IMG/VR virus record: IMGVR_UViG_2606217107_000010
Span: 1-12,555 of that record
Length of the DNA stretch: 12,555 bases
Reading direction: 5' to 3' (one strand)
Origin: a virus
Lineage: Duplodnaviria > Heunggongvirae > Uroviricota > Caudoviricetes
Within the stretch, counting starts at the first letter, position 1. Each line of letters opens with the position of its first letter. This document shows positions 4,150 to 4,732 of this stretch, in pieces. The translations under genes and the position numbers were made by a program. The notes under the pieces were generated by a model. That model was not told the DNA's origin. It was given only the letters and a program-made list of their open reading frames with translations, and searched no databases.

Positions 4150-4422
4150 ATGGACAATAACACCATTTCTCTACAGGAGTTGCTCGACAGCATTTCCAGG
4201 CTTCGGGAAGACGTGAATACCCTTACCGTCGCCTTCTCATATCTGGCATTCTCAATTCCAAGGGAACAGATGCAATCAACGCTGGCATCAATCCAGTTTG
4301 AATCATGCAATCCCAAATGGTCTCAGGAACAACAAGACTCTTTCAGGCGGCTTGCTGTATTACTGGATGAAAAATATGCTGGTAAAATTACCATTTCGGC
4401 GGACTCTTCAGAGAACCCGTAA
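4150..4422 (+). CDS. hypothetical protein (90 aa), convergent with and overlapping the 3' end of the holin-coupled gene
   Basis: ATG at 4150 with SD AGGA 6 nt upstream and a TACAAT -10-like hexamer at 4130..4135. The protein is soluble and acidic; no family recognised. Confidence 0.4.
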   Translation: MDNNTISLQELLDSISRLREDVNTLTVAFSYLAFSIPREQMQSTLASIQFESCNPKWSQEQQDSFRRLAVLLDEKYAGKITISADSSENP

Positions 4423-4732
4423 TTATTCCCGGTAGTTTTCCTCTGTAGGTTATCAACACATCCTGCGCCTCTAAAATTACGGGGCGCTTTTCCGGCGACT
4501 GCTCATCCCCTTCACATAACCCGGCAGCAACATCCAGGAAGACCTGTCTGATGCTCCTTCTGGCTGCTGCCTCATAAAACTCCAGCGCGGCACCTTCAAC
4601 ACGGTCCAGCGAGATGTCCAGGTCAAAAATTTCACCGTCAAAGCGTTTTTTGTCCCGTAACGCTAAAGTTACCGTAACTTTATTCTCAAAATTGCGGATC
4701 CCTTTCACAATCAGTTCATAGTTTTGAGTCAT
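4388..4732 (-). CDS. hypothetical phage protein translationally coupled to the holin (same position as ydfR/DUF1327-type genes in Qin-like prophages)
   Basis: 114-aa ORF; ATG at 4732 only 4 nt after the holin stop, with SD GGGGAG inside the holin 3' end. The family assignment is by genomic position only. Confidence 0.6.
   Translation of the reverse strand: MTQNYELIVKGIRNFENKVTVTLALRDKKRFDGEIFDLDISLDRVEGAALEFYEAAARRSIRQVFLDVAAGLCEGDEQSPEKRPVILEAQDVLITYRGKLPGIITGSLKSPPKW

Follow-up and report, generated by a model that had tools for sequence, protein, structure and literature searches.

The stretch of DNA analysed here, referred to as the window, comprises the 12,555 nucleotides (nt) at positions 1 to 12,555 of the IMG/VR record IMGVR_UViG_2606217107_000010, a tailed phage of the class Caudoviricetes. 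In its lysis cassette, a small plus-strand gene that we call gene B lies between the holin and the endolysin genes and converges on ydfR, the late-strand gene that follows the holin. The initial annotation had described a convergent pair of open reading frames (ORFs) with overlapping 3' ends, flanked by a pinholin and a signal-arrest-release (SAR) endolysin, and its coordinates all hold, including the 35-nt overlap and the gap of 4 nt between the holin stop at 4737 and the ydfR start at 4732. The features of the locus are the following (aa, amino acids; dG, folding free energy):

3511..4044, minus strand: endolysin of the T4-lysozyme family with a SAR-like, Gly/Ala-rich N-terminal segment (Phage_lysozyme, 1.3e-23)
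4098..4117, both strands: inverted repeat CAGCCTG-ttgcct-CAGGCTG (dG -12, z -2.3)
4130..4135, plus strand: TACAAT, a -10-like hexamer kept in three of the four allele types
4139..4143, plus strand: Shine-Dalgarno (SD) sequence GAGGA, 6 nt upstream of the gene B start codon and conserved among the E. coli alleles
4150..4422, plus strand: gene B, an ORF of 90 aa with an ATG start, from the ORF listing and a reading of the sequence
4388..4422, both strands: 3'-3' overlap of the B and ydfR coding regions, 35 nt
4388..4516, minus strand: the YdfR tail, called segment A, codons 73-114 and the stop
4400..4447, minus strand: partner motif YRGKLPGIITGSLKSP, about 16 residues, pattern h-x-G-x-h-x3-4-h-[TFS]-G-[SE]-h
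4465..4491, plus strand: terminator-like hairpin GCGCCTC-N9-GGGGCGC followed by TTTT (dG -12.3, z -1.7, weak)
4388..4732, minus strand: ydfR allele, an ORF of 114 aa with an ATG start, from the ORF listing (DUF1327/YdfR family)
4737..4952, minus strand: class II (S21/P21-type) holin, 71 aa from the start given by the Prokaryotic Genome Annotation Pipeline (PGAP), with a MYQM dual-start motif (PF04971, 2.3e-32)

The family search also placed Rz/Rz1 genes at this locus and, upstream, a SASA/DUF1737 esterase gene. The 1-kb stretch around the pair is 100% identical to many E. coli chromosomes, on which PGAP labels the same genes as class II holin, YdfR family protein, hypothetical protein (WP_000369850.1) and lysozyme.

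Gene B matches phrog_2411 over its full length (positions 1-90 of 90, 1.1e-58), and the sole name given to the family in any source is 'Ybl58' in UniRef. Homologues of 81-97 aa were found in Escherichia, Shigella, Citrobacter, Atlantibacter, Yersinia, Serratia, Sodalis and their relatives. The family, counted as 62 and then as 119 clusters at 90% identity, is confined to Enterobacterales, and at 50% identity it comprises 20 representatives among 1.84 billion proteins. The alignments show a conserved length and start and a common core, ELL..I..L+..VN.L..AFSYLAFS...E....I..L+FES.N......Q..F; the C-terminal residues of B, encoded opposite the partner gene in the overlap, are poorly conserved.

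These alignments bear on the possibility that the plus-strand ORF is not a gene at all, being open by chance or through constraint on the other strand. In comparisons with alleles 80-88% identical, the ratio of nonsynonymous to synonymous substitution rates (dN/dS) of B was 0.19-0.38, and third codon positions held 17-25 of the 34-39 differences. The antisense frame that shares the third codon positions of B has an equally low ratio and is open in three E. coli-type alleles, which, like the absence of a recognizable promoter, would suit a spurious ORF. However, 1-4 stops interrupt that antisense frame in the window as well as in six further homologues, whereas the B frame is open in every homologue, down to ~25-35% identity, and is preceded by SD-like sequences; the family also occurs at non-phage loci that have no opposite-strand gene. 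A chance ORF is effectively refuted and, as judged from these sequence comparisons, B is a real protein-coding gene under selection. The initial annotation had offered a lack of conservation of the 90-aa ORF in related prophages as grounds for abandoning its reading; the ORF is conserved there.

The computed properties of the B protein (isoelectric point 4.5, charge -5.5, maximum 19-aa hydropathy 0.75) are those of an acidic, soluble protein with no hydrophobic or transmembrane segment. AlphaFold2 (AF2) modelled it as three helices at modest confidence (predicted local distance difference test score, pLDDT, of 66). A Foldseek search with this model against the Protein Data Bank (PDB) returned nothing with an E-value (E) <1, and a profile of B matched no PDB sequence. 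Neither B nor the ORFs converging on it had a significant match in Pfam, NCBIfam or PADLOC, and the defence models of PADLOC-DB had no significant match for B, for the 114-aa YdfR (YdfR-114) or for the other partners. A sub-threshold NCBIfam match over 15 residues, to the anti-silencing protein Mip (E 0.037), was disregarded, and a relationship of B to the anti-adaptor IraP was rejected (hhalign probability 0.2%, BLASTP E 2.8). No literature was found on Ybl58, WP_000369850 or phrog_2411, the query 'ybl' giving unrelated papers only, and the general literature on lysis cassettes and morons yielded nothing specific.

The minus-strand ORF is a member of the YdfR/DUF1327 family (PF07041 over residues 1-111, 145.2 bits against a cut-off of 25, 7.3e-43) and bears the PGAP name 'YdfR family protein'. 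In the AF2 model, YdfR-114 has an N-terminal domain of three beta strands and a long helix, followed by a variable tail; residues 72-114 have a pLDDT <50 and are predicted to be disordered on their own. In the Qin prophage of E. coli K-12, residues 1-72 of YdfR bind the N-terminal catalytic half of RNase E, as observed by two-hybrid and co-purification assays, and RNA co-purification has been reported for the same protein (2026 paper, PMC13232886). The Qin locus, in the order essQ, ydfR, rrrQ, resembles the window in its class II holin, its 4-nt gap and its ydfR and lysozyme genes, so that slot and gene are the same. Unlike the window, Qin encodes a YdfR of 103 aa with a different helical C-terminus and without the tail motif, the ydfR stop overlaps the rrrQ start, and no gene lies on the opposite strand. 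The two YdfR proteins are 81% identical over aa 1-74, the region with the reported RNase E-binding residues. Homology between the window and Qin extends from the holin through ydfR codon ~69-74, breaks off, and resumes at endolysin codon 3. According to this pattern, YdfR is the resident and the variable unit consists of the tail, B and ~50 nt upstream of B; the inverted repeat at 4098-4117, a 5-bp core of which is kept between alleles, marks the right edge of the inserted DNA. The earlier view that a gene pair had been inserted between holin and endolysin thus applies to gene B and to the last ~42 codons of the minus-strand gene, and does not extend to YdfR itself, which is a normal resident of this position.

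Four junction alleles split right behind the LKxPP codons of ydfR and rejoin ~60 nt upstream of the endolysin ATG. Their occurrence in 5,426 complete E. coli genomes was as follows:

114-aa YdfR followed by B (window type): 1,152 genomes (~21%)
116-aa YdfR, tail without B: 1,120 genomes
K-12 type: 1,774 genomes
176-aa type, with a different reverse ORF: 294 genomes

Carriers of B include a laboratory strain derived from BL21(DE3), in which the cassette lies in Rac by trkG, as well as the uropathogen UTI89 and a Stx2k-converting phage. Other YdfR alleles carry the tail of the window (...ILEAQNVWITYKGKLPGRITGSLKTPP) and then diverge at once; the 116-aa allele is not followed by a reverse gene. 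Divergence between alleles is graded, from ~1% in the YdfR N-domain to ~8% in the tail and ~12% in B, which argues that tail and B are exchanged as one unit. The 104-aa YdfR allele (L091:2501-2815; L numbers designate the loci compared) has a different tail and no B gene. Its end, ...RYTIKINSSDNSITGC, can be compared with FSIKGN...IFGEL and looks like a truncated or degenerate form of the partner motif. The 176- and 183-aa alleles have a helical extension of ~64 residues and an unrelated 86-aa reverse ORF (MDYTNLPKQTFADLIALRQ...; L085:2979-3239, minus strand in that locus), which overlaps the 3' end of the 176-aa YdfR by 53 nt. Considered as a relative of B, this ORF was rejected by hhalign; no PGAP feature lies under a 461-nt query across the junction in the three genomes shown. 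Overall, small genes in reverse orientation recur at the ydfR-endolysin junction, which is a hot spot for them.

The junction counts speak to the proposal, made in the initial annotation, that B is a lysis regulator. As a dedicated timing device, B would tune ydfR, the endolysin and the spanins through antisense or convergent transcription, or its protein would act on the holin-endolysin pathway. The position between holin and endolysin invites this explanation, overlap of the B transcript with the late operon is unavoidable, and the late RNA polymerase must cross B to reach the endolysin and spanin genes. Yet three of the four junction alleles lack B while the lysis cassettes are otherwise near-identical across thousands of genomes, and the B protein has no membrane segment; antiholins and other lysis-timing proteins would be expected to associate with the membrane or to be confined to lysis cassettes.

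The distribution of the pair bears on the same question. Phage-borne B genes are always reversed relative to their neighbours and always overlap an ORF that runs with those neighbours, at its 3' end:

E. coli, in the holin-endolysin gap: partner YdfR-114, overlap 35 nt
Citrobacter, upstream of an unrelated holin/endolysin/spanin set: partner of 238 aa, overlap 14 nt
Yersinia, between tail genes I and J: partner of 52 aa, overlap 47 nt
IMG/VR phages related to Atlantibacter, between tail genes M and L: partner of 85 aa, overlap 7 nt
lambdoid immunity regions, between the repressor operon and N: partner of 59 aa, overlap 20 nt

Escherichia phage phiSTEC1575-Stx2k (L117, 1285-3303) has an S21-type holin, YdfR-114 and B, followed by a different holin/endolysin set. 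There, in place of the lysozyme gene, B precedes two more holin-like genes and a gene for an M15 metallopeptidase, so that two holin systems stand in tandem. In the search for further contexts, a scan of JGI metagenome contigs revealed no relatives, nor did viral-contig scans with P0192 and P0197. Taken together, these arrangements show B and the tail to be the two parts of a mobile cassette, convergent and overlapping, which is one of several junction alleles and is not tied to lysis. As far as the literature was searched, the portability of the pair and the motif of its partners are previously undescribed; the arrangement itself is common and already annotated. A dedicated role in lysis timing is very unlikely, since the pair also occupies tail operons and the immunity region, precedes a different holin/endolysin set in the Stx2k phage, and includes a gene, B, that also stands alone on chromosomes with no lysis genes nearby.

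The ORFs that converge on B are dissimilar except for one motif, which we observed in the YdfR tail and in the partners of Citrobacter, Yersinia and the Atlantibacter-like phages, and for which the immunity-region partner offers a candidate:

window: YRGKLPG-IITGSLKSP
Citrobacter partner: IEGKIRNEKITGSLRV
Yersinia partner: FDGELYSERITGSLFA
85-aa partner: IKGNIFSEQIFGELKK
59-aa partner: ICGNVFTEQLSGEIVG

Among 239,304 six-frame residues from 20 loci, the motif pattern was restricted to partners and YdfR tails, for a shuffled expectation of 0.25. In a leave-one-out hidden Markov model (HMM) test of five loci, the partner came out on top at four, each time among 107-300 ORFs and with E between 7e-3 and 2e-7. 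When the YdfR family profile was aligned by hhalign to the Citrobacter and 85-aa partners, the C-terminal motif was the sole alignment (E 0.015 and 0.028, respectively). The 238-aa Citrobacter partner was also considered as a cryptic DUF1327 protein; BLASTP and hhalign aligned its C-terminal motif only. The B stop codon faces the two ydfR codons for the I-T of ITGSL, a placement also seen in Yersinia. Relative to Yersinia, the window uses different synonymous codons for G, S and L of ITGSL, which points to constraint on the peptide. Three of the contexts have a small free-standing ORF as partner, and in two of these an SD-like sequence lies ahead of its start codon.

There is no intergenic spacer, so the transcripts of the two genes must overlap; the convergent, overlapping transcription proposed earlier is in this respect supported, with a conserved plus-strand gene directed against the late operon. 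Its ribosome-binding site was also correctly recognized, GAGGA lying 6 nt before the ATG. The TACAAT hexamer is present as described, but its standing as a -10 element is poor: the best -35 sequence is TTGCCT at 19 nt, the start would fall at ~4142, inside the SD sequence, and a consensus promoter scan found no sigma-70-like site upstream of B in the window. The same scan found none upstream of the Serratia B gene. Downstream, the hairpin at 4465-4491 lies inside the tail-coding region of ydfR, 43 nt past the B stop, and the B mRNA would overlap ~105 nt of ydfR if this hairpin were used. On the late strand no T-run follows it, in keeping with late transcription having to read through to the endolysin and spanin genes. 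B-strand hairpins inside the partner gene are stronger in Citrobacter (z -4.1) and Yersinia (z -3.7), and no terminator-like hairpin for B was found in two other contexts. No Rfam family matched the pair region.

Gene B also occurs without a recognizable partner. On Serratia-type chromosomes it lies between dinI and bssS (pyrC-dinI-B-bssS-solA) on the same strand as its neighbours, and no motif-bearing ORF was found near it (L096:3001-3285, L110:2501-2773). At L110, B is ~2 kb from rne, the gene for RNase E; this is notable given the report on YdfR and RNase E, and the proximity is probably a coincidence. The B gene of Sodalis is chromosomal. A divergent E. coli variant located on an island follows an AIDA-type autotransporter gene, and the nearest reverse ORF is transposase-fragment-like by eye.

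Such solitary genes on chromosomes and islands are what one would expect of a simple moron, an independently transcribed lysogenic-conversion gene like bor of phage lambda, for which the end of the opposite ORF would merely hold the 3' untranslated region and terminator. The bor gene is expressed in lysogens. In its working, it is the closest known parallel: a small gene set against the late operon by the lysis genes, with its own SD sequence and a terminator-like hairpin, and present or absent between otherwise identical neighbours, as B is in comparison with the K-12, 104-aa and 116-aa alleles. Related prophages have a Lambda_Bor gene that converges on Rz, in the same way as B converges on the lysis operon, and both the tail without B and the terminator-like hairpins of B within partner coding regions would be at home in this explanation. 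Unlike B, Bor is a lipoprotein whose gene has a known promoter and faces no conserved partner on the opposite strand, whereas phage-borne B always overlaps the end of a motif-bearing ORF and no promoter was found for it. An incidental neighbour also leaves the motif unaccounted for, as it is kept at the protein level, despite synonymous codon changes, across four or more genomic contexts that are unrelated, three contexts have the partner as a free-standing ORF, and the motif is not simply the terminator, the hairpin varying in position relative to it. We therefore regard a plain moron as somewhat unlikely. HK97 gp15, reportedly described by Cumby and colleagues in 2012 as a superinfection-exclusion moron of the tail-gene region, is similar to B in that a small accessory gene breaks the conserved tail-gene order, as B does at M/L and I/J; in contrast to the soluble, reversed and paired B, gp15 is a membrane protein encoded in the direction of the tail genes.

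The conserved convergent architecture could also be that of an antagonistic pair acting in defence, exclusion or addiction, in which one product is harmful or phage-blocking, the other neutralises it and the overlap balances the two, as in convergent type I toxin-antitoxin or restriction-modification pairs. In par (Fst-RNAII) of pAD1, txpA/RatA and bsrG/SR4, convergent units with overlapping 3' ends act as mutual antisense and are often prophage-borne; each consists of a toxin, which is a hydrophobic membrane peptide, and a non-coding RNA. The A/B pair shares this 3' geometry, its family is small, fast-evolving and mobile, and its sites are typical of prophage accessory genes, including a rexAB-like slot between the repressor operon and N. 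It differs from type I loci in that A and B are both protein-coding under selection, B is acidic and soluble and not a membrane peptide, each part occurs alone, and Rfam gives no match. It differs from type II systems in that the genes are convergent and not co-transcribed from one operon, and neither part matches a toxin, antitoxin or other family in PADLOC, Pfam or NCBIfam. Both parts are common alone, which one would not expect of a toxin whose antidote is obligatory. The idea of a small toxin in the initial annotation runs against the same properties of B and the same widespread separate occurrence, and an antagonistic pair appears quite unlikely.

The reading that we favour, tentatively and a shade short of an even call, is that B and A form a portable two-gene accessory cassette of temperate Enterobacterales phages which works as an either/or pair and whose products probably interact. 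In this prophage, the cassette has recombined into the 3' end of ydfR. Gene B is its reverse-strand part, with its own ribosome-binding site and terminator-like hairpin, and A a short operon-strand coding segment that ends in the motif, here fused in frame to the DUF1327 domain of YdfR. Without a spacer, and with the B terminator inside A, each RNA would be antisense to the other. By the same token, heavy transcription of the host operon, Q-dependent and late in this case, should shut B down through collision and antisense pairing; B would be made while that operon is quiet, for example in the lysogen, as we assume. Coliphage 186 provides a precedent in its pR and pL transcription, which is face to face and overlaps at the 5' ends of the transcripts of the lysis-lysogeny switch. 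The principle invoked here, a stronger unit suppressing a weaker one, is similar; unlike pR and pL, A and B overlap at the 3' ends of an accessory pair, for which interference is predicted. At the protein level, the motif of A, predicted to be disordered alone, is a likely ligand of B and hence a candidate B-binding peptide, and A made late may also neutralise or redirect the B protein. B is probably the effector, because it also exists as a stand-alone chromosomal gene, and would most likely modulate a host process.

Several observations weigh against this either/or reading. The A tail occurs without B in ~1120 genomes and B without A on chromosomes, therefore neither strictly needs the other. 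In the immunity region, the partner lies in the repressor operon and not in a late operon, so that 'A late, B lysogenic' is not a general rule; the same partner fails the leave-one-out HMM (rank 2, E 0.3). The motif was defined after the sequences had been seen, and the dN/dS of the tail, obtained from very few substitutions, is ~0.45-0.6. The hairpin at 4465-4491 is weak and is also present in the B-less allele. Finally, since the promoter scan upstream of B in the window was negative, expression of B in the lysogen is an assumption.

Other features of the prophage late region were observed outside the pair. The ~560 nt between the endolysin and Rz (2870-3433, minus strand) contain three or four tiny hydrophobic late-strand ORFs, namely PGAP calls of 28, 51 and 43 aa and an ORF of 70 aa, two of which have an RA(L/M)AFAI(K/R) motif in common. 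Judging by these ORFs, the gap resembles a second insertion in the lysis cassette, of small membrane peptides. Within the late operon, the interval that separates the SASA/DUF1737 esterase gene (5103-6974) from the start of the holin gene (4952) contains, at 4992-5020 (minus strand), a terminator-like hairpin of 12 pairs followed by TTTTTTT. A match to the Rfam small RNA STnc100 (132 bits) and three tRNA genes were found at 7581-7770 and 7850-8096 (minus strand), upstream of the esterase gene. An IraM-like anti-adaptor gene of the PmrD-fold family, reversed relative to the late operon, was found at L001:9321-9656, L085:1189-1524 and L117:3569-3892; this adds one more accessory gene in reverse orientation to the region, at a few kb upstream of the holin.

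About one in five complete E. coli genomes carries the cassette, with its products annotated merely as 'hypothetical' or 'YdfR family', and the locus is best treated as a mobile accessory pair and not as lysis machinery. Should B be a plain moron, this would still leave a named family, defined alleles and a hot spot between ydfR and the endolysin. A bolder proposal, which we consider fairly unlikely, is that A and B are an undescribed mobile two-protein switch, the protein-coding counterpart of convergent antisense loci. Through the 3' overlap and the C-terminal peptide motif, an operon-strand 'sensor/antagonist' A would be coupled to a reverse-strand effector B, whose host-modulating or exclusion function would be on only while the operon is silent; in E. 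coli, the motif would have been grafted onto the RNase E-binding domain of YdfR, linking the switch to RNA decay. If the interaction and the either/or expression hold true, the cassette would be a compact new design that ties an accessory function to the lysogenic or lytic state, and it would give a first handle on the role of YdfR, the RNase E-binding prophage protein.

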